DNA of 64,000 bases from an uncultured Methanosarcinales archaeon (GCA_964428335.1 CAYRXW010000008.1:9834-73833); one strand, 5' to 3'; counted from the stretch's first letter, positions 1 through 17,111 are shown. The notes: generated from the sequence alone by a model not told the origin. A program made the numbers and translations.

Positions 1-150
1 CATATCTTTTCGTTCATTATTTAGAATCCTAAAATTTAATTCAAGTTCTTTTCCTGGTTCAAAGAAAATTTCTTGGTATGCTGGGGCAATTCCAATGCCA
101 TAAACTGCAGGAATTAAAAATAATAGCAGCAAAAATAATATTTTTTTCAT
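1..150 (-). CDS. Partial CDS (N-terminus only, continues off the left edge): predicted secreted protein
   Basis: Too short in the window to appear in the ORF track. The reverse-strand ATG at 148-150 reads MKKILFLLLLFLIPAVYGIGIAPAYQEIFFEPGKELELNF..., a basic N-terminus plus hydrophobic core typical of a signal peptide. Its ATG overlaps the TGA stop (147-149) of the giant gene in an ATGA junction. Confidence 0.45.
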   Translation of the reverse strand, partial: MKKILFLLLLFLIPAVYGIGIAPAYQEIFFEPGKELELNFRILNNERKDM

Positions 151-3100
151 GGGCTCTCACCTATGATATATACTATTGTGCTTTTTCTTCCTGCGCCTTC
201 TGTTGTTGGAACAGTCACTTTAATGTCTATTTCAGCAGTATCTTGTGAATCCTGGTATTTTAAATGAGCAATAGCACTTTTGTTCTGCACTGTTATAGAT
301 GTAATATTTGTCCATGATGTTTGTGAAGATGTCCAGTTAAATGAACTGCTTTCTGTTGTATCATTGTCTATCTTGAACTGGAAATATGCTGTATTTAATC
401 CTATTGAAGAGAATAATGAATTTAGTGCACTTACATAGCTTATGTTAAGCCTTATATTTCCGTCATTTTGAACAATTAGAGGTGAGGCATTGCCATCAGT
501 TGAAACAATATCTCCATTTGATAAATTTCCAAAGTTCACTCTATTTGTTGTTAAGTTTAGTACAATTATTGGCTCTAATGTGAAATTCCATTTTTGCGAC
601 CATTGACCATATTCAGTCCCATCATATGCTCTGACCTGCCAGAAATACATGTTTCCAATGCAAAGCTCTGATTGAGCTGTGAAATTCAATGATGATATGT
701 TTCCGTAATAAAGGTTTGAACAGTAAGGTGAAGTGATATTTAATGTGTAATTTAATGGATCACTATCCAAATCATATGCTGCGTCCCATGTGAATCTTGT
801 ATATCTTCTATGAACTGTTGTGTTACCTGCTGTTGGTGTGCTTAAGTTAACTCTTGTTGGGGCTGTGTTTGTAGCTGAGATTATAACTGATGTTGAATTC
901 TTTGTCTGGCCATCTGAATAGCCGTCGTTTGGTGTGACTGAACATTTCCATTGTTCACCTAACGCAGTACTTTCTAATGTTATTATATTAGCTGTTTTAT
1001 TATTTAGGCCTGCTTTATAATTCTGGTAAATTTGGCCTGCTGATAATGTATAATTGTATATCTTGACTTCATCAATAGTTCCATTGAATACTGAAGCACC
1101 AGTATCGCTTGCTCCAATAGCAAGGAATTCCGGATCTGGGATAATATTTGTTACAGTAGCAAATGTATCTGTAGTACTATAAGTTCCATCAAAGTAATAA
1201 TCTATCTGATCAGTATTCATCTTGAGAACAAAAACAACATGATACCATCTGCCAGCTTGATTGAAAGTACCAGCCTGCTCCTGTTCAGAGGTTACGCCAT
1301 TTCCAATTTCAAAACCTAATGCATTGTTAGACAATGTCCTGATTCTATATCCTTTGAATGTTGTGCCATTAAAACTATCTAATAAGTAGGTTGTATCGCC
1401 AAGCTCTCTTCTTTTAAACCACATTTCAATACTGAAATTCTGTGAAAGATTATATGCAGGTATATGGGAAATAACTATATTATCATTTGTTCCATCAAAA
1501 CTATATCCTCCTCCGACCTTTCCTCCTGTCCTATTCCATGTAGCTCCAAATACCGTCCCTTTATTCCTGTATCCTGAGTAATCTGTAGCATTCCTTGATT
1601 CATTGCCATTGCCTTCGAACGGCATATATAATACAGTTGAAGACACTCCATTCTTATACCAATTTGTGATGTTCACAACTTTCTCACCATCTGCATCGCT
1701 GACACTTTGCCAGTTACATGTAAGGTTGCTGGTCGCATTAGGTAAGGTTGGTGTGATTGTTGGTGTACTTTGTGTTGGAATAGAATTGTTTATTGGTATT
1801 CTAGCAGTCTTGTTTGTTCCAAATAAGATTCCATCATATGGTTTCACAGTGCAGTTCCATCTCTCGCCTTTGGTGGTGTTCCCTGCACCTAGAGTTGTGA
1901 TAAGTGTATTGACACCGGAAGTCACGCTTGTTGTTCCGCTGAGTTTCAATGTGCTTGAGTTGAACCAGTACCAGTATGCTGTCAAAGAACTTGATTCCAA
2001 ATCAGTTGCTGTTGCATAGCATCCTATGTTTGAGGAAGTGTTTGCAGTGCTTGGGCTTAATGTAGGAGTAGTGATTAATGGGATAGAATCGATGGTCACT
2101 TTTGTCGAATTCTTTGTTATCCCATCACCATATCCATCGTTTGGAGTGACTGAACACATCCAACTATCATAAAGTGATGTATCGCTGCTGATTATTTTTT
2201 TGGGTGGATGGCTTAGCGTACCTGCCTGAAAATTAGCATAGATTTGCCTGTCGCTCAGGGAATGGTTGTATATCCTTACCTCATCAATGCTGCCATTGAA
2301 AGCGCCATCATTGGCCGAAACTGAATTGAATGCTGTCCCTATCCCTATCGGCTGGATACTATCATATCTTGGAATCGCTGTTGTTCTTAAACCTACGACT
2401 TTTGTACCATTCAGGAAAATATCCAAACTAGTCCCATTGAATCTCATCGCAGCATAATACCATCTATTCTGATTAAGATTCAAATCTGCCGTGACATTTA
2501 TGTTATTCCCAGTACTATACTCTTCATAACCTGCAACAAGATTTGTACCTGAAGAAAGAAAACCGAACATATAATTGGTATCCTTGTTATTGCCATCAGC
2601 TTCACCCCTACCTTTGGAGACAAATGGCTGCATCGACATGCTATTGGTGCCCATATTTGTGCTATCACCAGGTCCTTTATTGTTGAACCATAGCTCAATC
2701 GTGAAATTCTTTGTGCCAAGCGTGGCAGAATTTGCTATTATAATATAATTGTCAAGATTCCCGTCAAACTCATATCCCCCTCCTACCTTCCCTCCTGTCC
2801 TATTCCATGTCGCTCCAAAGACAGTTCCGTTATTCTCATATCCTGAATAATCAGTTGCATTCCTTGCTTCATTCCCATTGCCTTCAAAAGGCATGTATAA
2901 TAGGGTAGTGGATTTATTATTCTTATACCAATTAGTGATATTCATTGTTCTGTCACTGTCAGCATCACTGACACTTTGCCAGTTACATGTCAGATTACTT
3001 GTCGCATTTGGATATGTAGGAGTAATCGTTGGCGTATTATGTGTGGGCAGCCTATTTACCCAAAGGCTAGTATTTAGCCTATAATAATCTGAATATAATC

Positions 3101-6100
3101 CAGAACCACTTGGATCTACTGCCCGGCACCTTAGCCTTTCATATGTTTCATGTTTTGGATCTGATGCTAAGTTCCATGTAAGCGTAGTTCCAGCTGTATG
3201 ATTTCCTATTACTGTATAGTCATATTTCCTGTATTTTATATATAATATCGGTGCAGCAGCACTTTCGCCGTCATAAGATTCCATCTCTCTTACATCATAT
3301 AAATCATTAGATGAGTTGCTCTCACCGATGAATATTGCCATGTTGTTCCCGGATGACCATCCTGGCCTATCCACAATCTCCTGGATGATATCTCTTATGT
3401 TTGGAGTGGCATATTTTGTATTGACAGGGGTGAACTGCTGGCTGATTGCCCAGTTTACTTCTGAAGATGTCTTTTCCCTATTTGTAAGGTTTCCTGAACT
3501 TGCCGAGAAAGCTGGAGCAGAGTTTGTATCCTCTCCAAGCACATTCACGTTGAATTTTCCAGTCCATGTTGCAACATCAACTTCCATAGTAACATTGGCA
3601 TACAATATCTCTGCGCCTTGAGGTATATTTACACTTTGGAATCTCATACCAACCAACTGCCTGTTTCCATCAAGTCCTATTTCTAGGTCAGAGCTTGCCA
3701 GATCGACTGCGTAAGGACCTGGCTCAAATTCTTCAGCATCATCGTTTCCTGTATTTATCTGCTTGTTAAGTGTTGTTGTAGCATTATATGAAGATGCATT
3801 TCCTTTCTCTATTACATAGACTATGCTGTCTCCTAGGAAATCAGTGCTGCCTGAACAGTTTAGCACAATGGAATCAGAGAAAGAGTCTGCACAGCTTCCT
3901 TTGTTGCATGTCAAGGTGCTTGGAATTGTAGGTGAATTCTGTATGAATACTGATGCATTCTTCATCGTCCCATCTATATATCCATCATTAGGAATAACTA
4001 GGCATGCCCATTTTTCGTTTCCTGCAGTCCTTTCAGCAGATAATTTCCTATATGTTTTGTTGTTGAATCCTGCAATATATTCATCGTACACTTCAGTACT
4101 TGTCAGGCTATAATTATATATCTTGACTTCATCTATAGTGCCATTGAACTCATGGTCTATTGTTCCTCCGGATATCCTTGCACCTATAGTGATAGGATTT
4201 GTAGATGTTGAATACACTGGAGATACAAGGTCGCTGTCAATTAATACACCATTCACAAAAAGCCTGGTGACCCTGCCATCATAAGTTCCGGCAAGATGAT
4301 ACCATGAGCTGTTTGTCACATTGAAGGTAGTCGTGCTTACTGGACTATCATGCGCTTGGAAGAACACTACTTCAGTGGAATCATATTGAAGTGCAAATAC
4401 ATAGCTATCATCAGCAGAGTTTCTCTGCGTTACAATTTTCGCATTATCTTTTTGCCTTCTTTGTGGCTTTATCCAAGTCATTACTGTGATTGATTCTGTT
4501 GCATCATAATCAGAGCCAATGTCGATAATATCATCATTGCCATCGAATTCATATCCACCACCGATTTTTCCGATGCTCCTCCCAAATATTGCACTTGATA
4601 CATTCCCATTATTATTTAAGCCTGAGTAATCCTTTGTATATGTTGAATTGGAACCACCTTCAAATGGCAGATATACCAGCATAACTGATCTGTTGTTTTT
4701 GAGCCAGCTTGTGATATTATAGACCTTTTCTCCTTCAGTATCGGTTACACTCTGCCAGTTGCAGGTCAGGTTGCTTGTTGTGATTGGCGAGGTAGGTGTG
4801 ATTGTTGGAGTACTTTGTGTAGGAGCAGAATTATCAAGATATATTGATGTAGAGTTTTTCGTGACTGCTTCTTCATAACCATCATTTGGTGTGACAGAGC
4901 ACAGCCATTCTTCATCAGCACCAAGTTCGTTTGAAACTATTTTTTTCAAGCTTTTTCCGACAAGGCCTGCTTGGTAATTAGCTCTTATCTGCTGGGGAGA
5001 TAAAGAATGGTTATAGAACCTTACTTCATCTATGGAACCGTTCCACGAATTGCTTGTATAGTATGCACCACTTCCTATATGTATTGGGTTTTGCAGGTTT
5101 AAGACTTTTCCAGTTATAATTTCAGTATCTGCCTGTTCTATACCATTGACGAACATCTTGAGGATATGCCCATCATACCTTACTACAAGATGCACCCATT
5201 CATGTTTCGGTAAAGCTGAGTCGCTATATATCTGCCCGAAATCCGTAGTGGTATTGAGATCAAAGTAGATTTTCTGGTCTGCTGTGCTGTCAGTTTCAAG
5301 GACAAATGCCCTTTCTCTATTCAATACAGTATTGCCCTTTTCAATAATCCTATCCCAGTCACCTTTTGTATTTGCATATACCCATGTCTCTATAGTCAGC
5401 TGGTTCATGCCACCTAATTTTCCGTCATCTTCTATGGAAATATAATTGCTGTCTGTACTATAGAACCTATATGCCCCTCCAACTTTTCCCCCTGTCCTGT
5501 TCCAGTCAGCCAGTATCACAGTCCCATTATGTTCATGGCCAGAATAATCAGTCACATTATTCTCTTCATTTCCATTCCCTTCGAACGGAAGATAAAGCAG
5601 AGTAATTGATTTGTTATTCTTATACCAGTTTGTGATATTTATTACTGTATCATGGTTGATGTCAGAGACACTGTTCCAGCTGCATGTTAGGTTGCTTGAT
5701 ATGTTCGGACTGCTTGGAGTTATTGTAGGGGTATTATGAGTAGGTACGCTATTTATCCTTACGTAAGTAGAATTTTTTGTTGTTCCATCGATGTATCCGT
5801 CATTTGGAGTTACAGAGCAATACCAATGCTGTGATGAATCTAAATCTTCAGAGACAATAACTCTTGGTGTTTTATTATTTGAACCTGCTACATAATTTGC
5901 ATATATCTGTTGGTCTGAAAGTGCAATATTATATATCTTTACTTCATCTATTGAGCCGTTCCAGTAGTCGCCCCATGAAGTGTGTGCATCCACCCCTATA
6001 TGTAATGGTGTTCCGGATACATTTAGAACTTTTCCGGTGAATGCATTGTTATCAGACTGTCTTACTCCATTGACAAACACTCTGGTTTCTGTTCCATCAT

Positions 6101-9100
6101 ACCTTCCTACAATATGATTCCACTGGTTAAATGGCAGGCCTGAATTGCTGTAAGTGTTAGCTCCACCAGAATCTGTTGTCAAGTCAAACTGCAATCTTTG
6201 AGTTCCACTTTCAATTCTGAGTGCATAAGAAATATTTGTGTCTCCTGCACCAGCAGCTCCTTTTTCCAAAATTCTTGGATAATAACTGAAATTAGTACCT
6301 GTATATACCCATGCTTCAACAGTTAATTCAGACATCCCTCTAAGAGTTCTGTCATCTGGAATTTCTATGTAGCTTGAGTCCCCATCAAAATAATAATCTC
6401 CTCCTATTTTTCCACCGGTCCTGTTCCATATTGCATTGAATACAGTTCCATTGTTTTCATAACCTGAATAATCTGTTGCATTGTATTCTTCATTGTCATT
6501 GCCTTCAAAAGGCATGTATAATACTGTAATTGAATTATTGTTCTTGTACCAGTTAGTTATATTCAACACGTTGTTGTCTTCAGCATCTGTGATATTATTC
6601 CAGTTGCAAGTAATATTTGTAGTCATATTTGGATAGGTAGGTGTAACCGTAGGTGTGTTCTGTGTCGGAGCTGTGTTTGGTGTTATTGTCACAGCAGATG
6701 AAGATTTGGTTATCCCGTCCCAATAGCCATCATTTGGAGTCACAACGCAAATATATTGCTCATTTCCAACTAATTCATCATCTTTGATAATTCTATTTAT
6801 TTTGCCATTTACTCCTGCTGTATATGCTTGATTCACCTGAGCAGCTGAAAGCGAATGGTTATAGATTTTGATTTCATCAATGAGGCCGTCGAAATACCCA
6901 CCATCAGTTCTTCTCCCTATCTGGAGATTTCCTGATGTTCCTAGACCAAAGTCATAAAGGTCTTCATCTTCTCTAAGTACACCATTGACATAGAGATTAA
7001 CAGCATGACTGGAAGCAGTGTAAGTGCCTACGACATGGTACCATGTATTTGGCAGGTAGCCACTATTTATGTTGTCAGTTCCAATTATGTATTGTGTCCC
7101 ACCCTCATTCACTGAAAATGCGAATCCATATGCTTCAGAATCATCTGATGCAGGATCAGTGAGTGTCAATTGATATGCATTATTGGCATCTATCCTATTT
7201 ATCAGGATTCTCTGGTCTATAGAAGCAGTGCCTAAGAAATCATGTGGATAGACCCATGCTTCAAGAGTGAAGTCTCCGGGAAGGTTTAGTGTGCTGTCAG
7301 CTGGAATTTCTATATAATCATTAGTGCCGTCAAACTCATATCTTCCACCTACTCTTCCACCAGTACTGCTCCATATGGCTTCAAACACTGTCCCGTTGTT
7401 GTCATAACCTGAATAATCTGTTGCGTTTTTGTCTTCATTTCCATTCCCTTCAAAAGGCATATGGAGTACAGTGATGGATATATTATTCTTATACCAATTT
7501 GTTATATTCAACACCATATCGTTATCTATATCATCTGCATTGTTCCAGTTGCAGGTCAGGTCATTTGTGGCTGTTGGTGTAACTGGTGTTATGCTTGGCG
7601 TATCATGTGTAGGCGCAAGGCTTTGTATTGTCTTTAAAGCAGAACTAAATTCTGAATACGAGCTGCCATCATAAGTCCTTACTGTGCAGTTCCATACCTC
7701 TCCTCTTGTAGTGTTTCCTCTCCCAAGTGTTGTTATTAGTGCAGGGCTTCCTGCAGTAAGCCCTGATGTATTCCCTCCAAGTTCTAAGGTTGTTGAATTA
7801 TACCAGAACCATTCTACGGTTAAGGTTGAGCTTTCTGTATCATCTGGCGTTGCATAGCACTGGATATTTGAAGAAGTGTTTACTGTGCTTGGCAGGAAGG
7901 TTGGTGTGTTAATTGTCGGAGCTTCATTGCCACCCATGGTTAGATTAGTATCTAATGTATAATATTCTGAATTTGCTGTAGAACCAGTTACATCAATTGC
8001 ACTGCATCTCATTTTTTCATATACTTCTCCAGGTGTATCTAATCCTGTATTCCAACTGTAGGAGCTGCCTGCTGAATGGTTCCCTATCACAGTGAACGAA
8101 TATGCAACATCTGCAGATACATTTATATCATCTACCCAGCAGCCGTCAGTCCCTCCGGCAGTCCCGCTGTTGTCAGCTTCAGCTATCCATCTGAATGATA
8201 TAGGGTTACCGTCTGCTTCCTCTGGCAGAGTAACATTGACCTTAAAGAGTCCAAGGTTTCCTTCCCAGCAGGCATGGCCTGCAGATGGGCCATCGCAAAC
8301 ACCGCTATAGTCGCTTGTAGTTCCAACAATCATAGAATCATCTATAGTGGCCCAGTTATTGTCACCAATCTTATATTCAGCCCAGCATCCATCCCAGCCG
8401 TTTTCCATATTTACTCTTATCCAGAAATTCAAAGTCAGATTTTCAGTTATATCTGGTATGGTTATATTTGGAGACGTCAAGTATCCTGTATAAATGTCAT
8501 CCTCATTATCAATCCAAAATGCTCTTGTTGCGCTCTTATAATATCCATTTCCACCGTAAGTTGAATTCTGCCAGATGACTTTTGGATTATCTGTTGCAAC
8601 ATCACTATATGTACCATACGAGGCATTCCAATCACTCCAGCTGATGCTTTCAACATCCTCAAAGAATATCTCGCCATCTGTCAAACTTCCTTTCTCAACA
8701 ACATAAGTTATTGCGTTGCTTTCATTGTCAAAGCTTCCGGTGCAGTTGAGATTAATAGTCCCGGATGTGGTATAATTGCATAGTCCTCCATCGCAAAGCA
8801 GGGATGTAGGTGCAGTAGGCCTGTAGTTCCCATTTAGTGTTATTGTTGATATGCTAGAATTTTTAGTCTCACCATACTGGCTTCCGTCTGTAGGAGTGAC
8901 TCTGCAGAACCATTCGTCCCAAAGGGTGGTATCACTGCTACTTACCTGAATGGTCTTGTTGCTATATGTACGTATATAATTGAGATATATCTGCTCATCG
9001 CTGAGTGATTCATTATACATGCGCACTTCATCAATAGATCCATTCCAGTAATCGCTCCAGCTAACATATGCATCAACACCTATCATTATTGGATTTGCAA

Positions 9101-12100
9101 TATCTAGAACATCTCCACTGAGATATGAAACCTCTGTCTGCTTGACACCATTGATGAACATATTAATCTTTGTACCATCATATCTCGCAGCAATATGGGT
9201 CCATTGATTCTTAGGAAGTGCTGCATTGCTGTATATTTCAGCTGCTTGTGTTGTAGTGTTGAGATAGAAATACACTTTCTGGTCTGCAGAACCGTCTGTT
9301 TCTAATGCATAGGCGATATCTCTCCACCCAACAGCAGTATCGCCTTTTTGAAGTATTATTGCCCAGTTTGCTTTTGTTATTGGGTATACCCAAGTTTCTA
9401 TAGTAAGTTCTGACATGCCTCTAAGTATTGGACTATCAGGTATTGAGAGATATTCCCCTATCCCTTTATCAAAATGATATCCTCCGCCGATTTTACCATT
9501 TGTATTATTCCATTCAGCGCCATAGACAGTAGCATTGTTACCATAGCCAGAATAATCTGCAGTGATGCTGTCTTCATTGCCTCCATTTGTCTCAAATGGG
9601 AGATAGAGGAGCGTTATTGATTTGCCGTTCTTATACCAATTAGTGATGTTCACACCATAGTCATATCTCTCATCAGTTAGATTGTATAAGCATGTAAGAT
9701 TGCTGCTGTCTATTGGAATCCTTGGTGAAACAATAGGGTTATTAATCCATACTGGAGGATTATTCGCTGCTACTGTGACACGACTGGAATTTTTTCTAAT
9801 GCCATCATTATATCCGTCATTTGGAACAACTGAACAATACCACTGATCTCCTCCTATAAGCTCCTGATATGATAACTTCTTGTTGTTGTTTCCATTTGCA
9901 CCTGCAATATACTCCAGGTAGATCTGGTCAGGTGAAAGTGTAGCATTATAGTGCTTTATTTCATCAATCGTCCCATTGAACCTAGAAGTGGAAGTGGATG
10001 CTCCGCCAATTCTTAATGCTCCGCTGCTTGTATTGAAGGGCCCTGAATTATATGAATCAACATATGATCCATTGACATACAACCTGACTGTATAATCAGT
10101 ATCTATTGTTACAGCAAAATGATACCATTTATTTATTGCAATTGAATAGGGTGTACCTGGTCCATTAAGGTAATTTGTTGCGTTATAATATCTAAATTCT
10201 AGATTGTTTGATGTGCTGGTTATTCTAAGATGCCAAAGATCCTGAGAATTGCCTCTCTTATTAAGCATATACATACTCTCGCCTTTGCTTGCTGATGTTG
10301 TTGTTGAATAAAACCATCCCATAACTGTAAATGGAGGTCTGTCAAAGTAACTTTTTGCAGGTATTTCTATTATATCATTTGAACCATCAAATCTATAAGC
10401 TCCTCCAACCTTACCTCCAGTCCTGTTCCAGGTTGGCCCATTTGATGAAAGCCTTCCTTTATTGCCATTACCAGAATAATCAAATGCAACCTTGCTCTCA
10501 AGGCCATTTCCTTCAAAAGGCATGTAAAGGTTTGTAAATGATTTGTTGTTCTTGTACCAGTTTGTGATGTTCTTAAGTGTATCACCGTTTGAATCCAGAA
10601 TGCTGTTCCAACCGCAGGTCAGAGTGCTTGAGACATTTGGGCTGCTTGGTGTTATTATCGGTGTGCTCTGAACCGGGACTGAATTGTTATAATAGCCAAT
10701 CCTTACTTCAACAAAATCAACTAGACAACCTTCATTTGCATCCATGCTAACTCCACTACTCATGAGAACTATCTGACGGGATAGGTTCATCAGGTCTAAG
10801 ACACCAGACGTGTAATTGTATGTTCTTAAGACATCAGATGTTGATGATGTGTTATCTACAATTTCCATCCAATCTGCTTTTGTATAATTATATATCCAGT
10901 AATAGCAGTTTTCTCCATTGCCTGAAGCTTGAATTCTTCTCTGATCCATTGCAACATAAATCCAGTTTACTAGGCTTGGAGATGCGTTGGTTGAAAAATT
11001 AAACCTAGCAAATGGTTCTCTATTGATACCTGCTGCTCCTCTGGCACTAATATTAAGATAGCTTGCGTCATCATTTTTTAGAGCATTATATCCTGCAACT
11101 TTAACTTCATATGCGCCCCATCCTTCTGAACCTGTTGGATTTGTTGCTGTTGTAAAATCCCCTATAGAAATATTGGATACCTGATTGGTTGCATTTGATC
11201 TCATATATACCTTATTTGTAGCAGTATTTGAGAAATTAAGAATTTTTACATTAAACGGATGGCTGTATGAATCATTTATCTCCTGTTCATTACCAAGTGA
11301 GATGAACCTTCTGTTCATTGATTTATATGATGCATTTATCCAATCACCAGTTCTTGCAGTCTTTGACACTCTGACTTCATCCATGACACCATCCGAATCT
11401 CCAGGCCAAGAATCTGTTCCGCCTATCATAAATGAAGCAGTAGTTCCTGTCGGATCACTGGTTCTACCAGTAGTGCTGGTCTCTTTGCCATCTACATAGA
11501 TATAATCAATATCATTAGTTGAATCATGAACAACAGAAACAAAATGCCAAGTATCTGCTAAGATGCTAGATGCATCGCTAGTGATACTATAGTCAGTGGC
11601 ACCATTTCTATAGTAGAATGTCATTCTGTCATTCTCATCATAAAAGCCAAACCCACCATTTCCGCCTCTATTTTTTCCAAGCCAATCATTCCATCCGAAT
11701 GCTTCAGGCTTCACCCAGAAACTCACAGAAAAACTATTGGTTGTTTCTCCGTTTTTTGATGGGAAGCCTGATGCCAGGTTTGAATCGCTCCTATTGATAA
11801 GTCCAGGATTTGCTTCATCATCATCAACATCAATAGAACCTGCAACTTTTCCTGGGTTCGTATAGTGTAAAGTGCTTTTATTATTTAGGTGATTAGCATT
11901 TGAAGTTGAGTCTTGTCTTTGGCCGATAGAGCCATTTAGGTGCCAGACACCTTCATAATACTGATCCCATGTCCCGGTCTTGTTTTGGCCGTCTGATGCA
12001 GCTGAATTATTATAATACAGCCATATATAATCCAAATTCGAGGATTTTGTTATATTCGGGACTTTGACCCATAAAAAGGATTTTCCAGATGCATTCCAAT

Positions 12101-15100
12101 ATTCTAATTCATGCTTTAGGACTGTAGCCCCATCCGCATCAATAAACCTTAAATCTGCACCAAAAGGCTTTGCCAGAGAATAGTTGAAATTAGTCCTGTT
12201 CAAAGGAACCAGTACTGTGAAATTGATAAGATCTTCATTTTGCTCTGAATTAGACAGTGTAATCTTTCTTCTATATCCCCATGAACTGCTCCACCACGCA
12301 TTTGTACCGACCGTGTAATTGATATACAGTCTCGGAGCATAGGTACCATAATCATAAACTTCAAGATCACTATCCCCTGCAGTTCCGTCATTTATTATTA
12401 CGAAGCTGATATTATTATTTACAGACCAACCCTGCCTGTTTATTATCTCCTGAACTATGTCAGTCACACTGACTGAATAATTCTGCCCCGTAACCCACCC
12501 TCCCGGGTAACTTATATCAAAATCTGTCCCGCTTGAGGTCAGGCTCCATGTGGATGGCAGGTTCGCTGAACCAGGGACTGCTCCGCTGTTGGCTGATTGG
12601 GCTTTTACTTTTGAATAAACAGTATAACTTCCGCCTTCTCCGCCGGCAGCTGTTAACCTAAGCACCGCATTATGGATATTTGCTCCCTTTGGAATTTCAA
12701 TCCTTCTGAATCTTGCAACCATCCATTCATCGGATGAAGACGGATCTGTATAATGACCAAACCAGGATGAGAATTCATTCCATGTGTTTTGCGGATATTC
12801 GTGGCCATCATCTGAATCAGCTGCAATAGTGTATGAACTTATAGGATCATAAGCGTAATCACTCACAGTCATGTTCTGGTTTGAAAATTCAAATAGCAAA
12901 GTTGCATAGCCTGCAATATTCATATAATTGGTCAAATACCCTGTTGAATTGCATTCATAATCTTCTATCAATAATTTCCTTATTAATATTGAATCTGTTA
13001 ATGCCAAATCTGCATAATTGTAATAATTGTTTTCATAATCGATTATCTTCAAGTTGTTTATTAGGCTGAGTTCTCCACAGCTTAGGTTTTGGAACGACAT
13101 TTCACCTTTAGTCAAAATATCATCTGTCAAAAATTCTGTCCAGTTTGCATTTGGAGAACTTATTGTTAAATTTCCAATTCCTGTTGTATTAAACGCAACT
13201 ATCCAAGTATCTCCATCCCTTAAATATTCGTAAGGATTAAGGACAGTTATTGAGATTTCAAAAGTCTGATTGGATAGGTGTGGAGTTATCCATTGCAGCT
13301 TATCTATAAGACTATTGTTATTTGTATCAATGTACTCAAGCTCATTAAATTCGTTTCTTGTTCCATTGATTATCCAATATACATTAATTGAACCTTTGCT
13401 TGATTCTTTTATATCTGTGTATGTCAATACGTTCTCATAATGCACTTCTGAAGATATTGTGATTTTTTTCTTGTAACTATTTATTATATCTTCATTAACA
13501 GATGGACCTTCTGTATAATAACTGATTTCCACTTCATTGAGACTAGAGGCAAATTCCAGTGTAATATTCGTTTCTGTTTCAATATCCTGTGCATTTAATG
13601 AAATTATTTTTTTATTTAAGGATGTAACTTTATCATATGTCTCCAAAGATTTATCTTCTTTTGTTGGTTTTTTTAGCCGTTTTACTTCATTTTCCAGTGC
13701 TCTTGAATATGCAAATCCATTATATTCTTCAAGTTCATATTCAACCTCTCCAATCTTTACCTTTACATTTTCTTCAGATGTTATATTGTATGCATCTTTT
13801 GGAAGTATTGTCTTATTGATAAGGGAGGCATTAACAACTTTTTTCCACATGACTGGCTTATTAATTTCAACATTTGAGTAATTTAAAGAAAGTGTTGCTT
13901 TCTCGATTAACGAATTATTTACTGTTGTATTTGCTATGGTTTCATTTATTGATATATTTGATTCTTCAATATAAGTATAAGTTAATTCTGTAAGATTTAA
14001 TATTGCATTATCAACTTCAATTCTTAGTATGATGTTTTTTCCAATATTTTTTAGGTAGCATGTTTCAAGGCAATAGTTTTCAAATGTACTTCCTGAAATT
14101 ATTATTACTGATTCATTTGTAGAAGAAATATTAGTGCTATTTACTCCTTCTAACTGAATTGATTCATTTATAGGATAGTCTGGCAAGGTTGAAATATTTC
14201 CAGAATTTGATTTATTATCTGTGATATTTGATTTTATTTCTACAATTGGAAACTCTGTTTCATTTTGATTACTTGATATATTTTCAAATTCAACTGAACC
14301 TGTTTCAATTGTTTGATTATAGGTTTCATTAACTGTATCAGTTAAATTAATTGTTCCATTTTCCAGGATTAATGAAGTGTTCAAAATCAGAGTGGCATTA
14401 AGCAAAGTAATATTACGCAAAGTAACATTAATTAAAGTTTCATTAATAGGTAAGGAGGAATCATTTTCAATTATTGCTAATTCTTCTGAAATTTCGTTCT
14501 CTGGATTTTGAATTGTAATATTTTCAGAAAGTGATACAGATTCATTAGTTATCAAATCTATAACTTCTGTATTTTCTTCTTCTGTATTTTCTTGTTCTAT
14601 AGTTTCTACATATTCAATTTCTGGAAGTTCTATATTTTCATTTATGACTTCTTGTGTTTCTTCTATTACTGGAAGTTCAACCTGTGGAACTATTTCTTCT
14701 TGCTCTTCTTCTGGTACTTCAATAATGCTTTGGTTTTCAAATACTACAAATCCGGTAATCTGGTCAGATGATTTTTTTATTTTTGAACTGTCCAAAATAA
14801 GCTTATCATCAATGTAGATTTTTGCAGTCCCTTCCCCTAGTATATTACCAGATATCCTTACTGAAGTCACATTGCCTTTCAGGCCAAATGCTAGTGATGA
14901 ATTTTCAAAGAATTGCTCTTGAATAACTAGCCTTTCTGCGTTTGTACCATATGTTACCATTCCTGTAAGTTTTGGATTTAGAACCATTAGGCTTCCAAGA
15001 ATAAAAACTGCAAGTATAATCAGTAATACAGTATATTCTTTCTTAGGATTTTCCTTTTTTTTAGAAGTTTTTGTAAGGAACTCTTTTAATGGCTCTTTAG

Positions 15101-15116
15101 AAAAAGGTAAACTCAT
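147..15116 (-). CDS. Giant (4,989 aa) membrane-anchored surface protein with multiple LamG/concanavalin-A-like lectin domains, a putative adhesin
   Basis: Single uninterrupted 14,970-nt ORF. The N-terminus has a basic tail plus one TM helix (YTVLLIILAVFILGSLMVL), which is a signal anchor. Next come an acidic E/I/V-rich tract and an Asn-rich N-x-S/T tract. A DUF2341-like segment follows (WGYRRKITL..NFTVLVPL..DLRFIDADG..LWVKVPNI..IWLYYNN) with a LamG domain after it. Then come eight nested Ig-like/LamG units and other beta-sandwich modules, ending in FN3-like C-terminal modules. No C-terminal anchor was seen. Confidence 0.9.
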   Translation of the reverse strand: MSLPFSKEPLKEFLTKTSKKKENPKKEYTVLLIILAVFILGSLMVLNPKLTGMVTYGTNAERLVIQEQFFENSSLAFGLKGNVTSVRISGNILGEGTAKIYIDDKLILDSSKIKKSSDQITGFVVFENQSIIEVPEEEQEEIVPQVELPVIEETQEVINENIELPEIEYVETIEQENTEEENTEVIDLITNESVSLSENITIQNPENEISEELAIIENDSSLPINETLINVTLRNITLLNATLILNTSLILENGTINLTDTVNETYNQTIETGSVEFENISSNQNETEFPIVEIKSNITDNKSNSGNISTLPDYPINESIQLEGVNSTNISSTNESVIIISGSTFENYCLETCYLKNIGKNIILRIEVDNAILNLTELTYTYIEESNISINETIANTTVNNSLIEKATLSLNYSNVEINKPVMWKKVVNASLINKTILPKDAYNITSEENVKVKIGEVEYELEEYNGFAYSRALENEVKRLKKPTKEDKSLETYDKVTSLNKKIISLNAQDIETETNITLEFASSLNEVEISYYTEGPSVNEDIINSYKKKITISSEVHYENVLTYTDIKESSKGSINVYWIINGTRNEFNELEYIDTNNNSLIDKLQWITPHLSNQTFEISITVLNPYEYLRDGDTWIVAFNTTGIGNLTISSPNANWTEFLTDDILTKGEMSFQNLSCGELSLINNLKIIDYENNYYNYADLALTDSILIRKLLIEDYECNSTGYLTNYMNIAGYATLLFEFSNQNMTVSDYAYDPISSYTIAADSDDGHEYPQNTWNEFSSWFGHYTDPSSSDEWMVARFRRIEIPKGANIHNAVLRLTAAGGEGGSYTVYSKVKAQSANSGAVPGSANLPSTWSLTSSGTDFDISYPGGWVTGQNYSVSVTDIVQEIINRQGWSVNNNISFVIINDGTAGDSDLEVYDYGTYAPRLYINYTVGTNAWWSSSWGYRRKITLSNSEQNEDLINFTVLVPLNRTNFNYSLAKPFGADLRFIDADGATVLKHELEYWNASGKSFLWVKVPNITKSSNLDYIWLYYNNSAASDGQNKTGTWDQYYEGVWHLNGSIGQRQDSTSNANHLNNKSTLHYTNPGKVAGSIDVDDDEANPGLINRSDSNLASGFPSKNGETTNSFSVSFWVKPEAFGWNDWLGKNRGGNGGFGFYDENDRMTFYYRNGATDYSITSDASSILADTWHFVSVVHDSTNDIDYIYVDGKETSTTGRTSDPTGTTASFMIGGTDSWPGDSDGVMDEVRVSKTARTGDWINASYKSMNRRFISLGNEQEINDSYSHPFNVKILNFSNTATNKVYMRSNATNQVSNISIGDFTTATNPTGSEGWGAYEVKVAGYNALKNDDASYLNISARGAAGINREPFARFNFSTNASPSLVNWIYVAMDQRRIQASGNGENCYYWIYNYTKADWMEIVDNTSSTSDVLRTYNYTSGVLDLMNLSRQIVLMSSGVSMDANEGCLVDFVEVRIGYYNNSVPVQSTPIITPSSPNVSSTLTCGWNSILDSNGDTLKNITNWYKNNKSFTNLYMPFEGNGLESKVAFDYSGNGNKGRLSSNGPTWNRTGGKVGGAYRFDGSNDIIEIPAKSYFDRPPFTVMGWFYSTTTSASKGESMYMLNKRGNSQDLWHLRITSTSNNLEFRYYNATNYLNGPGTPYSIAINKWYHFAVTIDTDYTVRLYVNGSYVDSYNSGPFNTSSGALRIGGASTSTSRFNGTIDEIKHYNATLSPDQIYLEYIAGANGNNNKKLSYQELIGGDQWYCSVVPNDGYNDGIRKNSSRVTVAANNPPVWINNPIVSPRIPIDSSNLTCLYNLTDERYDYGVNITNWYKNGKSITLLYLPFETNGGNEDSITADYSGYGNNATVYGAEWNNTNGKIGGGYHFDKGIGEYLSIPDSPILRGMSELTIETWVYPITKANWAIILQKGDTAVGWRDIAYALETDGSADQKVYFYLNTTTQAAEIYSNAALPKNQWTHIAARYDGTKINMFINGVKQTEVSYLSGDVLDIANPIMIGVDAYVSWSDYWNGSIDEVRMYNESLSDEQIYLNYIRTYSNKTIQVSSSDTTLWDEWFCRVTPTDGSQYGETKNSSISTITLNGNYRPTAPTSLLCDGGLCNYTTSGTINLNCTGSFDNESNAITYVVEKGSLTDGEIFFEDVESISWSDWNASYGTYSDVATDNPKVIWQNSTYGGNGYYKSATRAFWIDNEDDIYTGYLTSPNITIPDITENLTLNFWIRVNMENGWDGCWAEYKIGDNNWATIDDSMIVGTTSDYSGVCDGPSAGHACWEGNLGLFKVNVTLPEEADGNPISFRWIAEADNSGTAGGTDGCWVDDINVSADVAYSFTVIGNHSAGSSYSWNTGLDTPGEVYEKMRCSAIDVTGSTANSEYYTLDTNLTMGGNEAPTINTPTFLPSTVNTSSNIQCYATPDDTESSTLTVEWFWYNSTTLELGGNTSGLTAGSPALITTLGRGNTTRGEVWNCTVRTYDGSSYSEFSSALKTIQSLAPTHDTPSITPVTPTATNDLTCNWNNADDIDNDMVLNITNWYKNNISITVLHMPFEGNGNEDKNATDYSGYDNNGTVFEAIWSSTGGRVGGRYEFDGTNDYIEIPADSTLNLPGDFTLEAWVYPHDFLGTASIDQRILINRIDANNAYQLTLTDPASDDSEAYGFAFSVNEGGTQYIIGTDNINSGYLPNTWYHVVGTYTASSHAVNLYVNGVLREDEDLYDFGLGTSGNLQIGRRTDGGYFDGLIDEIKIYNHSLSAAQVNQAYTAGVNGKINRIIKDDELVGNEQYICVVTPNDGYWDGITKSSSAVTITPNTAPTQNTPTVTPTYPNMTTNITCNWNNITDAEDNNVLNITNWYKNNNSITVLYMPFEGNDNEEYNATDYSGYENNGTVFNAIWNRTGGKIGGDYYFDGDSSYIEIPDDRTLRGMSELTVEAWVYTGTNFSYYPRILEKGAAGAGDTNISYALRIESGTQRLQFDLTTDSGGANTYSNSGLPFNQWNHIVGRYDGTETRVFVNGVRQSDNNAFTGKVLNVSGTPLHIGVDAHTSWGDYWNGSIDEVKIYNIALSDQQIYANYVAGSNNKTPRVIVSEDLDSSQHWYCSVTPNDGYIDGTTKNSTYVRINSVPTHNTPTITPSSPNISSNLTCSWNSVSDINHDTVINITNWYKNNKSITLLYLPFEGNGNEENNVTDYSGHEHNGTVILADWNRTGGKVGGAYRFYSTDSNYISIEDDGKLGGMNQLTIETWVYANTKGDWDRIIEKGNTVLNRERAFVLETDSTADQKIYFDLNTTTDFGQIYSDSALPKHEWVHLVVRYDGHILKMFVNGIEQADTEIITGKVLNLQNPIHIGSGAYYTSNSWNGSIDEVRFYNHSLSPQQIRANYQAGLVGKSLKKIVSNELGADEEWLCSVTPNDGYEEAVTKNSTSIYLDNSAPTQSTPTITPTSPITTSNLTCNWQSVTDTEGEKVYNITSWLKNNRSVMLVYLPFEGGSNSTYTKDYSGLNNNGNVSSAIFGRSIGKIGGGYEFDGNDDIIDIGSDYDATESITVMTWIKPQRRQKDNAKIVTQRNSADDSYVFALQYDSTEVVFFQAHDSPVSTTTFNVTNSSWYHLAGTYDGRVTRLFVNGVLIDSDLVSPVYSTSTNPITIGARISGGTIDHEFNGTIDEVKIYNYSLTSTEVYDEYIAGFNNKTYRKLSAERTAGNEKWACLVIPNDGYIDGTMKNASVFIQNSPTIPSTLTCNKGSCADSFSDSIVLNCSGSTDFLGDSIVYVIEKGNASSYNATTTLNKQINTGNDDAEEFEPGPYAVDLASSDLEIGLDGNRQLVGMRFQSVNIPQGAEILYANVTMEVDVATWTGKFNVNVLGEDTNSAPAFSASSGNLTNREKTSSEVNWAISQQFTPVNTKYATPNIRDIIQEIVDRPGWSSGNNMAIFIGESNSSNDLYDVREMESYDGESAAAPILYIKYRKYDYTVIGNHTAGTTLTWNLASDPKHETYERLRCRAVDPSGSGLYSDYYRLNTSLWVNRLPTHNTPTITPTYPNATSNLTCNWQSVSDADSDRTMNITNWYKNNKSTTLLYMPFEGNGNEARNATDYSGYENNGTVFGATWNRTGGKVGGGYEFDGNLDNYIIIANSATLGTKNFTIELWFNNKGPGDSTNMGTNSMSMQPFVSKGRGEADGNNKDTNYMFGFLSSGTNLVAGYEEYSTGNNINVTADLNLNQNRWYYAAMRFNGTSLDIFLNGTKVVGLRTTAIPRYDSIQPIGIGTAFNSVSANDGAFNGSIDEVRIYNHSLSDRQIYANFQAGTLSHPPKKIISSDTSLYDSWMCSVTPNDGYGDGITKNSTKVTIDSIPLITTPTLSPSTANTSSNIGCYATATDLESSSLTAYWYWFNSSTLKLSGTTSVTSGVNTLITTLGAGNTTKGERWNCTVKPYDGILFGTNKTARIPINNSIPTQSTPTITPTLPNATSNLTCNWQSVSDADGEKVVNITNWYKNGVSSTVLYMPFEGNGNESRNATDYSGYRNKGTVFGATWNRTGGKVGGGYSFDGTNDNIVISHIPAYNLSQNFSIEMWFKRRELGDTTYLLDSFNGTTFKGYRIRTLSNNALGFEIGNGVTSEQEQAGTFNQAGRWYHVVFVLKMNTDQIDYYFDGTYSTTDTFATVTNIIPDPEFLAIGASDTGASVFNGTIDEVKIYNYTLSAGQIYQNYKAGLNNKTANIITLESTALGEQWKCSVTPNDGYSDGQTKNSTSVIISATNTAPTRVNLSTPTAGNTTVHRRYTRFTWDAAYDLDSDPLNYTLNITSPYCSNLYYGNISSLNFTAQSELCIGNMYFWQVRAYDGTEYGQWSQKWNFTLEPIIVLNLTTNRVNFGNLSNGDIVSTDGNASPLIVQNDGNIRLNISYVSALNSLFSSIGLNTAYFQFKIDNDTTESSSFNWTSSQTSWTNITSITVQNKSAIAHLKYQDSQDTAEIDIKVTVPTTEGAGRKSTIVYIIGESP
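876..1785 (-). repeat. Nested Ig-like/LamG unit 8
   Basis: The NITNWYKNGVSSTVLYMPFEGNGNE anchor is near 1651-1675. The unit ends with WKCSVTPNDGYSDGQTKNST. Confidence 0.7.
1786..2088 (-). repeat. Uninterrupted Ig-like module b
   Basis: The translation reads NIGCYATATDLESSSLTAYWYWFNSSTLKLSGTTS...KGERWNCTVKPYDGILFGTN. Confidence 0.6.
2089..3055 (-). repeat. Nested Ig-like/LamG unit 7
   Basis: The NITNWYKNNKSTTLLYMPFEGNGNE anchor is near 2921-2940. The unit ends with WMCSVTPNDGYGDGITKNST. Confidence 0.7.
3056..3945 (-). other. Block X2: the same Cys-rich host module as X1, carrying a DNRLRE-like guest domain
   Basis: The N-part of the host is LTCNKGSCADSFSDSIVLNCSGSTDFLGDSIVYVIEKGN. The guest has MRFQSVNIPQGAEI. 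The C-part of the host is YDYTVIGNHTAGTTLTWNLASDPKHETYERLRCRAVDPSGS..DYYRLNTSL. Confidence 0.5.
3946..4835 (-). repeat. Nested Ig-like/LamG unit 6 (most diverged)
   Basis: The NITSWLKNNRSVMLVYLPFEGGSNS anchor is near 4700-4715. The unit ends with WACLVIPNDGYIDGTMKNAS. Confidence 0.65.
4836..5755 (-). repeat. Nested Ig-like/LamG unit 5
   Basis: The NITNWYKNNKSITLLYLPFEGNGNE anchor is near 5620-5640. The unit ends with WLCSVTPNDGYEEAVTKNST. Confidence 0.7.
5756..6680 (-). repeat. Nested Ig-like/LamG unit 4
   Basis: The NITNWYKNNNSITVLYMPFEGNDNE anchor is near 6541-6565. The unit ends with WYCSVTPNDGYIDGTTKNST. Confidence 0.7.
6681..7620 (-). repeat. Nested Ig-like/LamG unit 3
   Basis: The NITNWYKNNISITVLHMPFEGNGNE anchor is near 7485-7500. 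The unit ends with YICVVTPNDGYWDGITKSSS. Confidence 0.7.
7621..7930 (-). repeat. Uninterrupted Ig-like module a (host fold without a LamG insert)
   Basis: The translation reads NIQCYATPDDTESSTLTVEWFWYNSTTLELGGNTSG...RGEVWNCTVRTYDGSSYSEF. Confidence 0.6.
7931..8850 (-). other. Block X1: Cys-rich beta-sandwich host module carrying a MAM/CBM-like guest domain
   Basis: The N-part of the host is LLCDGGLCNYTTSGTINLNCTGSFDNESNAITYVVEKGS. The guest ends in GCWVDDINVS. The C-part of the host is YSFTVIGNHSAGSSYSWNTGLDTPGEVYEKMRCSAIDVTGS..EYYTLDTNL. Confidence 0.5.
8851..9770 (-). repeat. Nested Ig-like/LamG unit 2
   Basis: The NITNWYKNGKSITLLYLPFETNG anchor is near 9628-9650. The unit ends with WFCRVTPTDGSQYGETKNSS. 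Confidence 0.7.
9771..10680 (-). repeat. Nested Ig-like/LamG unit 1
   Basis: The NITNWYKNNKSFTNLYMPFEGNG anchor is encoded near 10545-10570. The unit ends with WYCSVVPNDGYNDGIRKNSS. Confidence 0.7.
11300..11960 (-). other. Stand-alone LamG (Laminin_G_3-like) domain following the DUF2341-like segment
   Basis: The translation reads GVWHLNGS...GKVAGSIDVDDD...FSVSFWVKPEA...WHFVSVVHDS...IYVDGKE...GVMDEVRVSKTARTGDWI. Confidence 0.65.
11990..12300 (-). other. DUF2341-like domain of the giant protein
   Basis: Motif order is W-x-Y/R-R-K-I-T-L, NFTVLVPL, DLRFIDADG, ELEYWN, LWVKVPNI, IWLYYNN. The family assignment is from memory and was not searched. Confidence 0.5.
12310..12850 (-). other. Beta-sandwich domain with an R-F-x-x-I/V-x-I-P-x-G-A-x-I signature (DNRLRE-like); paralog of the guest domain in block X2
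   Basis: The translation reads WMVARFRRIEIPKGANIHNAVLRL ... VTDIVQEIINRQGWSVNNNISFVI ... APRLYINYT. The X2 guest reads LVGMRFQSVNIPQGAEILYANVTM ... IRDIIQEIVDRPGWSSGNNMAIFI ... APILYIKYR. Confidence 0.5.
13950..14720 (-). repeat. Low-complexity acidic and Asn-rich stalk region, dense in N-x-S/T sequons
   Basis: The translation runs EVPEEEQEEIVPQVELPVIEETQEVINENIELPEIEYVETIEQENTEEENTEV, then NITLLNATLILNTSLILENGTINLTDTVNETYNQT and similar. Boundaries are approximate. Confidence 0.6.
14975..15035 (-). other. Signal-anchor transmembrane helix of the giant protein
   Basis: The reverse complement of 14981-15035 translates to YTVLLIILAVFILGSLMV. It is preceded by the Lys-rich segment TSKKKENPKKE. 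Confidence 0.75.
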
Positions 15117-15562
15117 TTTTTCCCACCTTTCTTTTCAGCCCTATTTTGCAGAGTCCATATAGTTTTTTGGCTTCTTTTAAGTAGCCTTGCTATCTCTGTT
15201 AGTTTAAGGGAATGAGTATTTTTTAAGTAAAAGACTATAATTTCAGCCATTGATTTGGTTTCTGAATTTAGTTCTGATATAGGAATTGAATATTTTGAAA
15301 CTAATGATGAAAATTTTTTATGGCTTTTTTTTTCAGTTCTCTTAAATGTAGTCCATATGACCTGCCTGTCTTTATTAAGAATTCTTCCACATTCTGAATA
15401 ACTAAAATTTTTTTCTTGGATAAGATACTTCACTATGGATTCAAAAGGGCTCAATTCTTCTGAAAAAATTGAAATTGGTACCTGATCTTCTTTTTTATCC
15501 AAAAAGTCTGAAAACTCTTCAAGAATTACATTTTTGTCATATTTTGTAAGATTAATTGTCAT
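15113..15562 (-). CDS. Small DNA-binding protein with two tandem sigma-70 region 4/LuxR/HTH_10-type helix-turn-helix repeats
   Basis: There is an internal duplication. Copy 1 is SPFESIVKYLIQEKNFSYSECGRILNKDRQVIWTTFKRTEKK. Copy 2 is SMAEIIVFYLKNTHSLKLTEIARLLKRSQKTIWTLQNRAEKK. Its TGA stop overlaps the ATG of the giant gene (ATGA at 15113-15116). Confidence 0.7.
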   Translation of the reverse strand: MTINLTKYDKNVILEEFSDFLDKKEDQVPISIFSEELSPFESIVKYLIQEKNFSYSECGRILNKDRQVIWTTFKRTEKKSHKKFSSLVSKYSIPISELNSETKSMAEIIVFYLKNTHSLKLTEIARLLKRSQKTIWTLQNRAEKKGGKK

Positions 15563-15624
15563 ATTATGTAGGTATTATGTAAGTTTTTGTAGGAAATTAA
15601 TCATTTTTTGTAATATTATGTAAG
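15542..15624. promoter_or_regulatory. Phased array of six TTWTGTARG-like direct repeats across the start codon and 5' region of the HTH gene
   Basis: The copies are ttttgtaag 15542-50, ttatgtagg 15564-72, ttatgtaag 15575-83, ttttgtagg 15585-93, ttttgtaat 15606-14 and ttatgtaag 15616-24. The G of TGTA falls at 15546, 15568, 15579, 15589, 15610 and 15620. The spacings are 22, 11, 10, 21 and 10, which is about one helical turn per slot. Confidence 0.55.
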
Positions 15625-15690
15625 AATATAGTTTATAAAACTTACCATATTTTTGCAAAGGTTTAATAGAGATTTAAAATTCTAAAGAGT

Positions 15691-16059
15691 GTGAAAATAG
15701 CAATTATAGGCGCTTCAAAAGATAGGGATAAGTACAGCAATAAAGCTGTGAGAGCTTATGTATCAAGTCATCATGTTGTTTTTCCTGTTAACCCAAATGA
15801 AAGGGAAATTGAAGGATTAAAATGCTATAATTCTGTTTTGGATATACCTATGGATGTGGAATGTGCCTCAATCTACCTTCCTTATGAAATAGGAATGAAA
15901 GTTGCTGATGACATTCTTAAAAAAGGCATAAAAAATGTGATTTTAAATCCTGGTGCAGATAACCCTGAACTTTTAGACAAGTTCAATGCTTTGGGAATAA
16001 ATACTTTGAGGACATGCTCGATAAGGCATATAGGAGTTAACCCTAAGGAAATACAATAA
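15691..16059 (+). CDS. CoA-binding domain protein (YneT/YccU-like)
   Basis: GTG start. The translation MKIAIIGASKDRDKYSNKAVRAY...FPVNPN...IEG..CY.S..DIP matches the pattern typical of CoA_binding_2 proteins. Confidence 0.75.
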   Translation: MKIAIIGASKDRDKYSNKAVRAYVSSHHVVFPVNPNEREIEGLKCYNSVLDIPMDVECASIYLPYEIGMKVADDILKKGIKNVILNPGADNPELLDKFNALGINTLRTCSIRHIGVNPKEIQ

Positions 16060-16090
16060 ATATTAATACCACTTTTACTAACCTGTTTAA

Positions 16091-16483: not shown

Positions 16484-16537
16484 TTCGTTTAACCGAACTG
16501 TTAAGGAAATATTTATAAGTTGTTCGGCATTCCGAAC
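16482..16537. promoter_or_regulatory. Two GTTCG-N-CGAAC palindromes bracketing a TATA box, a candidate DtxR operator/promoter
   Basis: Palindrome 1 is AGTTCGtttaacCGAACT at 16482-16499. The TATA-like atttataa is at 16511-16518. Palindrome 2 is GTTCGGcattCCGAAC at 16522-16537. The ATG of the downstream gene is at 16542. Confidence 0.55.
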
Positions 16538-16541
16538 AAAT

Positions 16542-17102: not shown

Positions 17103-17111
17103 AAATAAAAA

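Follow-up and report, generated by a model that had tools for sequence, protein, structure and literature searches.

A probably autoregulated chromosomal three-gene operon for a putative giant-lectin surface complex in a Woesearchaeota archaeon

What might an archaeon with a tiny genome use a surface protein of 4,989 amino acids (aa) for, and how could such a protein be held and controlled? DPANN archaea depend on cell contact, and no attachment apparatus has yet been defined for the Woesearchaeota, to which we assign the DNA analysed here. This is a stretch of 64,000 nucleotides (nt; CAYRXW010000008.1:9834-73833), hereafter called the window, at the beginning of which the gene of a giant protein overlaps a smaller gene at either end:

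15113 to 15562, minus strand: gene 1, a 149-aa tandem helix-turn-helix (HTH) protein
147 to 15116, minus strand: gene 2, the 4,989-aa giant surface protein
1 to 150, minus strand: gene 3, first 50 codons; the gene continues beyond the start of the window, and its full product is P0016 (445 aa)

We read these genes as a chromosomal, probably autoregulated operon that would build a surface lectin/adhesin complex, and we give this reading a probability of roughly 60%. The giant would be exported via an N-terminal signal-anchor, and its glycosylated acidic stalk would display nine LamG (concanavalin-A-like) domains as a carbohydrate-binding array, whose most plausible targets are glycans, either those of a partner or host cell or those on polymers. 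The product of gene 3, a predicted type-I membrane protein with three Ig-like domains, would most likely bind the C-terminal domain of the giant and hold it at the cell's own membrane, as WxLIP holds WxL proteins in Firmicutes. The tandem-HTH protein would most likely set the expression of the operon by binding three TACATAATA sites, which extend over its own promoter and start codon, and the two internal genes would be translated from Shine-Dalgarno (SD) sites inside the preceding gene. The locus thus offers a testable list of parts, consisting of a lectin array, a candidate C-terminal docking domain, a membrane partner family and a regulator with a candidate operator.

The giant open reading frame (ORF) is uninterrupted, as an earlier note on this DNA had claimed: our reading of the window found zero internal stops over 14,970 nt (4,989 codons, 147 to 15116, minus strand), and so long a stop-free frame in DNA with 36% guanine plus cytosine (GC) rules out, judged by composition, a chance origin. 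From the N- to the C-terminus, the following parts of the protein can be distinguished:

14979 to 15116, minus strand: basic cytoplasmic tail and transmembrane (TM) helix, aa 1-46 (hydropathy scan, orthologue alignment)
14727 to 14978, minus strand: conserved N-terminal ectodomain of about 85 aa, aa 47-130 (alignment and hidden Markov model, HMM)
13857 to 14726, minus strand: Glu-rich linker and Asn-rich, sequon-dense stalk, aa 131-420 (composition)
11247 to 12296, minus strand: DUF2341 (aa 986-1052), then LamG domain 1, aa 941-1290 (Pfam)
8826 to 10679, minus strand: supermodules M1-M2, aa 1480-2097, each an Ig-like domain of about 95 aa with a LamG domain apparently inserted in a loop
7617 to 7916, minus strand: uninterrupted small Ig-like copy without LamG, aa 2401-2500
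3924 to 7616, minus strand: supermodules M3-M6, aa 2501-3731
2076 to 3050, minus strand: supermodule M7, aa 4023-4347
864 to 1781, minus strand: supermodule M8, aa 4446-4751, including the evidence from a tile modelled with AlphaFold2 (AF2)
576 to 863, minus strand: FN3-like domain, aa ~4752-4847, which always precedes the terminal domain
150 to 575, minus strand: terminal beta-sandwich domain of about 140 aa, aa ~4848-4989, always at the C-terminus

Both the N-terminal anchor and the acidic, Asn-rich stalk that the earlier note had described are present. The Lys-rich tail of 27 aa carries a conserved motif, PF..EPLKEF, which is kept as far as orthologues whose HTH proteins are just 47% identical, and it is followed by the sole hydrophobic segment of the giant, a single TM helix at aa 28-46 according to the hydropathy scan. 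The ectodomain behind it is bracketed by P-x-L-T-G-M-V right after the TM helix (aa 48-54, window 14955-14975) and by ITGFV at its end (aa 121-125, window 14742-14756), and an HMM of this domain matches 15 of the ORFs found overlapping an HTH gene at metagenome loci. A motif of the form P-x-x-T-G-[FYM]-[VIA] stands directly after the N-terminal TM helix in most large proteins that follow HTH-family genes (in L011, L034, L051, L073 and others; L numbers denote related loci). The layout of basic tail, TM helix and PxxTG outwardly resembles an LPXTG-type sorting signal in mirror image. The linker (aa 131-200) consists of 33% Glu, and the stalk (aa 201-420) of 16% Asn with 23 sequons; in the whole giant 202 N-X-S/T sequons are found, compared with 97 expected from its composition. 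Among the domain families proposed for the giant, LamG and DUF2341 were borne out by Pfam, with nine separate Laminin_G_3 (PF13385) stretches (E 1.1e-212, 698 bits versus a cut-off of 27.6) and one DUF2341 (PF10102) match at aa 986-1052 (42.7 bits, cut-off 23.4), whereas DNRLRE gave no match in the NCBIfam scan of the whole giant at E<=0.01.

Eight of the nine LamG domains lie within supermodules of 301-325 aa, which are 34-53% identical to each other. Each of these LamG domains is flanked by a pair of Cys residues 260-277 residues apart, and the same pair is separated by 56-57 residues in two copies that lack LamG (aa 2401-2500 and 4347-4445). After removal of LamG, the eight modules are collinear with the two uninterrupted Ig-like copies, which indicates that LamG was inserted in a loop of an Ig-like domain of about 95 aa. 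The composite LamG-in-Ig unit appears to have been amplified after this insertion, and the nested module would thus be a neat case of domain insertion followed by tandem amplification. Structure prediction, which had been suggested as a check, was carried out for one tile (aa 4440-4989) and gave an AF2 model with a mean predicted local distance difference test score (pLDDT) of 88.5. Its best Foldseek matches are the receptor-binding domains of botulinum and tetanus toxins, and further matches include arabinanase domain 4 (5hon, TMt 0.74), sialidase and pentraxin, that is, sugar-binding jelly rolls. The LamG part of the tile is accordingly modelled as a lectin-type jelly-roll beta-sandwich; the matches of this 550-aa tile are dominated by LamG and are uninformative for the terminal domain. 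Diversity-generating retroelements are common in DPANN archaea. We rejected such an element for this locus, where no template/variable repeat pair was found beyond the intragenic module repeats.

Because of the lectin domains and the literature on DPANN archaea (PMC5498576, PMC7414124, PMC10266531), the giant can reasonably be read as a protein for attachment to a host or partner. The alternative that survives best is substrate capture, in which the LamG array would retain polysaccharide, soluble or particulate, on the cell so that it can be taken up; such a role has been proposed for Csc/WxL clusters in lactobacilli. The matches of the modelled tile to arabinanase domain 4 and sialidase are consistent with this, as are the presence of a GH15-family glycoside hydrolase gene nearby, which is syntenic in relatives, and the roles in carbohydrate use or binding proposed for WxL-type clusters (in the passage of PMC10599100 that cites Siezen 2006; PMC9026416). 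However, the Pfam and NCBIfam scans revealed no catalytic domain in the giant, and the operon contains no transporter gene; in addition, DPANN archaea are mostly episymbionts, and their LamG proteins are usually interpreted as binding a host (PMC5498576, PMC7414124). We therefore regard substrate capture as unlikely, while noting that the present evidence does not separate substrate polymers from cell glycans as ligands of the array.

If the giant is an adhesin, its C-terminus leads to the second part of the proposed complex. Many DPANN proteins, 312-875 aa in length, have the conserved terminal domain at their very end, and neither a Pfam search with eight terminal domains at E<=10 nor a PDB sequence search gave a true match; matches to Scone and PQQ beta-propellers were rejected as noise caused by repeats. 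In the loci that we fetched, HMM mapping showed that all ORFs ending in this domain are followed by a member of the gene-3 family (13 loci, 10 of them non-redundant). Gene 3 is thus the most strictly conserved partner of the C-terminal domain of the giant. The two genes overlap by 4 nt in L009, L011, L012, L019/L020 and L021/L022, and they are about 0.8 kb apart in L010. In L013, L014 and L016-18 a TM protein of 156-162 aa is encoded between them (L013 10522-10992, L014 10824-11312, L016 9526-10014); it has an N-terminal TM helix, an FN3-like domain and a short beta domain and is absent from the operon in the window. L013, L014 and L019 contain additional pairs, in which a small terminal-domain protein (213-231 aa) is accompanied by a gene-3 paralogue. 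Smaller homologues with the terminal domain have hydrophobic N-termini that, read by eye from the sequences, are signal-peptide-like; if these are cleaved, the small proteins would need a separate membrane anchor.

The downstream signal-peptide protein of the earlier note is indeed encoded there: the 50 residues of gene 3 visible in the window are identical to the N-terminus of P0016 (445 aa) in the protein database, and the AF2 model of P0016 (pLDDT 86.5) comprises a signal peptide, three beta-sandwich (Ig/CARDB-like) domains, a TM helix at residues 363-386 and a three-helix cytoplasmic tail. An exhaustive profile search placed 1,917 clusters (50% identity, E<=1e-30) in this family, nearly all with proteins of 390-450 aa. 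Those members for which a source is named are called 'hypothetical protein' and come from DPANN archaea, and no family name exists in the libraries searched. By analogy, gene 3 most likely docks the terminal domain at the membrane. The closest model is the WxL cluster of Firmicutes, which consists of large and small WxL-domain proteins plus WxLIP (PMC10599100). In both systems, large proteins combine binding domains at the N-terminus with a conserved domain at the C-terminus, and small proteins contain the latter only; WxLIP, like the gene-3 product, is encoded in the neighbourhood and has Ig-like domains that are preceded by a signal peptide and followed by a TM helix at the C-terminus (PMC10599100). 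When gene-3 members were searched one by one against Pfam, WxLIP_HBD was found in 13 of 32 (E<0.01, best 4.1e-8) and CARDB in eight of 32; P0016 itself reaches 22.3 bits against WxLIP_HBD (DUF3324), for which the cut-off is 28.9. There are differences, too. The consensus of the terminal domain lacks the dual W-x-L motif, gene 3 encodes three Ig-like domains and not two, DUF916 (WxLIP_PGBD) is detected in a single one of the 32 members (E 0.0024), and the NQIDKxxxYFDLK motif is absent from P0016. An archaeal host is not expected to have peptidoglycan; a gene of the D-Ala-D-Ala-ligase type is present in the window. Membership of the terminal domain and gene 3 in the WxL/WxLIP families is thus not established, and their pairing is, so far as we found in the literature, undescribed.

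How the three genes would be expressed together is suggested by their junctions and by the region upstream of gene 1, where we recognised the following signals:

15632 to 15640: TATA-like TTTTATAAA, just upstream of the TACATAATA sites
15614 to 15622, 15573 to 15581 and 15562 to 15570: three TACATAATA sites, the last of which overlaps the A of the HTH start codon
15563 to 15690, minus strand: divergent promoter region and candidate operator (sequence reading)
15122 to 15127, minus strand: SD-like GGTGGG, 5 nt 5' of the giant ATG, within the end of the HTH gene
157 to 162, minus strand: SD-like AGGTGA, 6 nt 5' of the gene-3 ATG, within the end of the giant gene

Both ATGA overlaps described in the earlier note are present: the TGA of the HTH gene (15115-15113) shares ATGA with the start codon of the giant gene (15116-15114), and the TGA of the latter (149-147) shares ATGA with the start codon of gene 3 (150-148). 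A single 4-nt overlap means little in this genome, because three of the 38 same-strand gene pairs in the window show one; the weight lies on the conservation of both junctions, each of which is kept in related genomes, as the synteny check demonstrated. A stoichiometric coupling of the HTH protein to the giant, as had been assumed, does not follow from an ATGA overlap. AGGTGA or GGTGGG is found at the equivalent place before the giant start in L003/L004, L007 and L011 and is absent there in L006, and AGGTGA precedes gene 3 also in L009; the HTH gene has no SD sequence ahead of its ATG. The gene downstream of gene 3 is convergent in L009, L012 and L021, and the operon therefore ends after gene 3 in these relatives. 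We infer that the three genes share a single transcript. A scan with bacterial promoter and terminator models, which are not applicable to archaea, remained at background (60 sites versus 66 expected, and 7 versus 8.9).

All three copies of TACATAATA in the 64-kb window fall within 61 nt that end on the HTH start codon, and a repeat period of 21 nt was detected at 15567-15624 by Tandem Repeats Finder. The sites are found at the same positions in the orthologous loci L001-L005 and L007/L008, with HTH proteins as low as 47% identical. This makes the triplet a candidate operator, and the operon is probably autoregulated, with its first gene encoding its own regulator. Such a design is common, for example in arsR operons.

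The HTH protein contains two tandem motifs similar to sigma-70 region 4 (about aa 38-85 and 105-145), in line with the tandem HTH reported earlier, and the family alignment points to an internal duplication. Nine of 12 family members match Sigma70_r4_2 (PF08281; best E 4.4e-9), and the sole match from a PDB profile search with the family, to region 4 of sigma-H, was marginal (E 0.029). The pairing of such a protein with a giant had been called unusual, which is not the case. In close relatives with readable context the HTH gene always overlaps a long ORF at its start, and the N-terminal architecture encoded there is the same; a metagenome scan detected 125 HTH relatives, including 47 loci with at least 1 kb of sequence after the HTH gene. 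At 36 of these 47 loci an ORF of at least 350 aa begins at the end of the HTH gene, and 35 of the 36 overlap it, 17 by exactly 4 nt; 32 of the 36 encode a TM helix in the first 130 residues, and 22 extend past the available sequence. A copy of the HTH gene identical to that of the window is contained in, for example, the samples SRR14271366 and SRR14271372. Pairing with N-terminally anchored large proteins is thus a family-wide rule for these HTH genes, which has not been described so far as we found in the literature. In one record (L011, CAYTWW010000021.1) a giant, a partner, an HTH gene and a second giant are arranged in tandem. This record is labelled 'uncultured Methanosarcinales archaeon', and its genes match proteins of Woesearchaeota and Nanoarchaeota, so that mis-binning is possible. 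A 171-aa gene upstream in L021 was rejected as an HTH gene, being a frame-shifted or cut part of the giant.

The arrangement of gene 1 and gene 2 recalls the pairs of extracytoplasmic function (ECF) sigma and anti-sigma factors, in which an HTH gene of the region 4 type overlaps a second gene, whose product crosses the membrane once and has a large domain outside the cell. It is conceivable, yet quite improbable, that the two form a signalling pair in which the cytoplasmic tail of the giant holds the HTH protein at the membrane until ligand binding or tension on the ectodomain frees it for DNA. The gene order, with an N-in membrane protein, is that of ECF pairs throughout the family, the 27-aa tail motif is conserved over the same range of orthologues as noted above, and in 12 of 30 relatives the N-terminal region on the cytoplasmic side is 26-102 aa long. 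In the other 18 of 30 downstream proteins, however, the tail has 17 aa or fewer, too short for a domain of the anti-sigma type. Archaeal RNA polymerase works without sigma factors, and the HTH protein is not one, as it lacks region 2 and reaches only 17-24 bits with NCBIfam sigma models that have cut-offs of 43-323.

We return to the proposed operon for a surface lectin/adhesin complex, against which several points can be raised. With an uncleaved N-terminal TM helix and a membrane-held C-terminus the giant would be tethered at both ends, which is an unusual geometry. Searches of Pfam and PDB detected no similarity in sequence between the terminal domain and WxL or any other known domain. LamG domains also bind proteins and act as plain scaffolds. 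Foldseek searches with the gene-3 model returned mostly generic Ig arrays, among which WxLIP of E. faecium (9i25_C, 9i1y) ranks just 14-22 (E 3e-9), and the HTH protein of the window scores 20.9 bits with Sigma70_r4_2, below the cut-off of 25.7.

A bolder proposal goes beyond this locus, and we offer it tentatively, as one that may well fail. The terminal domain and the gene-3 family could represent an undescribed, DPANN-wide non-covalent tether for secreted lectins on a wall-less cell and thus an archaeal counterpart, possibly a distant homologue, of WxL/WxLIP, while the tandem-HTH family, overlapped with anchored giants bearing P-x-x-T-G-[FYM], could couple the state of surface proteins to transcription. 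If the docking pair is real, it would explain how secreted LamG proteins are retained on wall-less cells, and a terminal domain followed by a partner gene would serve as a genomic marker for surface-interaction proteins across DPANN archaea.

More doubtful than the signalling pair is the view that the giant is a structural component of the envelope, such as an S-layer-like or matrix protein, and not a specific adhesin. Heavy predicted N-glycosylation, membrane anchoring and beta-sandwich arrays are typical of archaeal envelope proteins (PMC5498576, Mia14 surface-layer proteins), but a 550-kDa single-copy protein is ill-suited to a lattice, the dedicated regulator argues for conditional expression, and module number and length vary widely among relatives (748 to 4,989 aa), as is typical of fast-evolving interaction proteins. 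Finally, an assembly artefact or a decaying pseudogene stitched across repeats is scarcely credible, for although the gene holds eight paralogous modules and every public assembly of the orthologous gene (L001-L008, L009, L010, L012, L021) ends inside it, the DNA repeats among the modules are only 60-79% identical (longest pair 300 nt at 77%) and thus too diverged for collapse, the frame is intact throughout, the conserved N- and C-terminal domains stand in the correct order, the GC content is native, and ORFs of 3,171-3,646+ aa that begin and end alike are present in relatives. With all assemblies ending inside the gene, full-length relatives are missing from the protein databases, where all matches to the C-terminal tile are shorter than 1,000 aa.

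Surface proteins with LamG/concanavalin-A-like domains (arCOG07813) are expanded in Mia14/Micrarchaeota, Undinarchaeales and Nanohaloarchaeota, and a function in host recognition has been proposed for them (PMC5498576, PMC7414124, PMC10266531). Like the giant, they are secreted or membrane-bound, have multiple LamG domains and belong to the same lineage group. In size the giant exceeds most of them by far; its 4,989 aa include nine LamG domains, and eight of these are nested in an Ig-like domain. In addition, its terminal domain with a dedicated partner gene and the preceding HTH gene are not described in the cited papers. The giant lectin is thus of a type already known in DPANN archaea, whereas its companion genes and the nested module are, as far as we found, undescribed. 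The SPEARE giants of Nanohaloarchaeota comprise 8,880-9,409 aa, including an ATPase domain that is VirB4/TraG-like, and a gene for a VirB4-family ATPase lies downstream of them (PMC10266531). They share with the giant a membrane-associated ectodomain of enormous size with Ig/FN-like arrays, which takes up more than 1% of a genome of about 1 Mb (PMC10266531). In contrast to SPEARE, no ATPase domain was detected in the giant by the Pfam scan, and its downstream gene encodes an Ig-like membrane protein; we therefore rejected membership in this family. Tat-fimbriae of haloarchaea carry TafC, a LamG-bearing tip adhesin that is held by a separate membrane protein, TafF, encoded in the same cluster (PMC11821415). 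TafC (NF052521) is the sole NCBIfam match of the giant, at 261.7 bits versus a cut-off of 410, and covers model positions 189-360 of 373, which correspond to the LamG part. The giant lacks a Tat (RR) motif and a TafA-like pilin domain, and there are no genes for filament subunits, so that it was not assigned to TafC, either.

As to the organism, the earlier note had assumed a small-genome archaeon, and this agrees with the placement of the locus on a DPANN (Woesearchaeota) chromosome. The window has 36.4% GC, is about 95% coding and encodes aRF1, TFB, ValRS, a PEP synthase/PPDK-type enzyme and PGK; tRNA and Rfam scans of the window gave no matches. Relatives of all three operon genes come from metagenome-assembled genomes named Candidatus Woesearchaeota, Nanoarchaeota or Pacearchaeota. 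The genes divergent from the HTH gene (window 15691-17939, plus strand) code for a CoA-binding protein, an iron-dependent repressor of the DtxR type, an uncharacterised protein of 186 aa and the iron permease FTR1; these neighbours are syntenic beside the HTH gene in related Woesearchaeota genomes and in Logan metagenome assemblies. Based on this gene content, the names of the related genomes and the syntenic neighbours, we consider the locus a native chromosomal region of a Woesearchaeota archaeon with a tiny genome. A foreign origin of the giant gene was rejected, its GC content of 37.8% being native to the window (36.1% in the remainder).

Some observations concern other parts of the window. 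Two ORFs, at 18937-20592 (minus strand, 551 aa) and 28615-30741 (plus strand, 708 aa), have no Pfam match. At 42671-46670 (minus strand) a lysine-2,3-aminomutase-like radical SAM gene, the ATP-grasp gene of the D-Ala-D-Ala-ligase type and a second ATP-grasp-like gene are clustered, which could be a beta-lysine or peptide-forming pathway. A BatA/VWA gene is located at 58731-59663 (minus strand) and its surroundings, and in L016-L018 (19415-21197) genes for MoxR-type AAA, DUF58 and VWA proteins flank expanded clusters of terminal-domain and partner genes; a recurring association of such clusters with Bat-like aerotolerance/VWA genes is possible.

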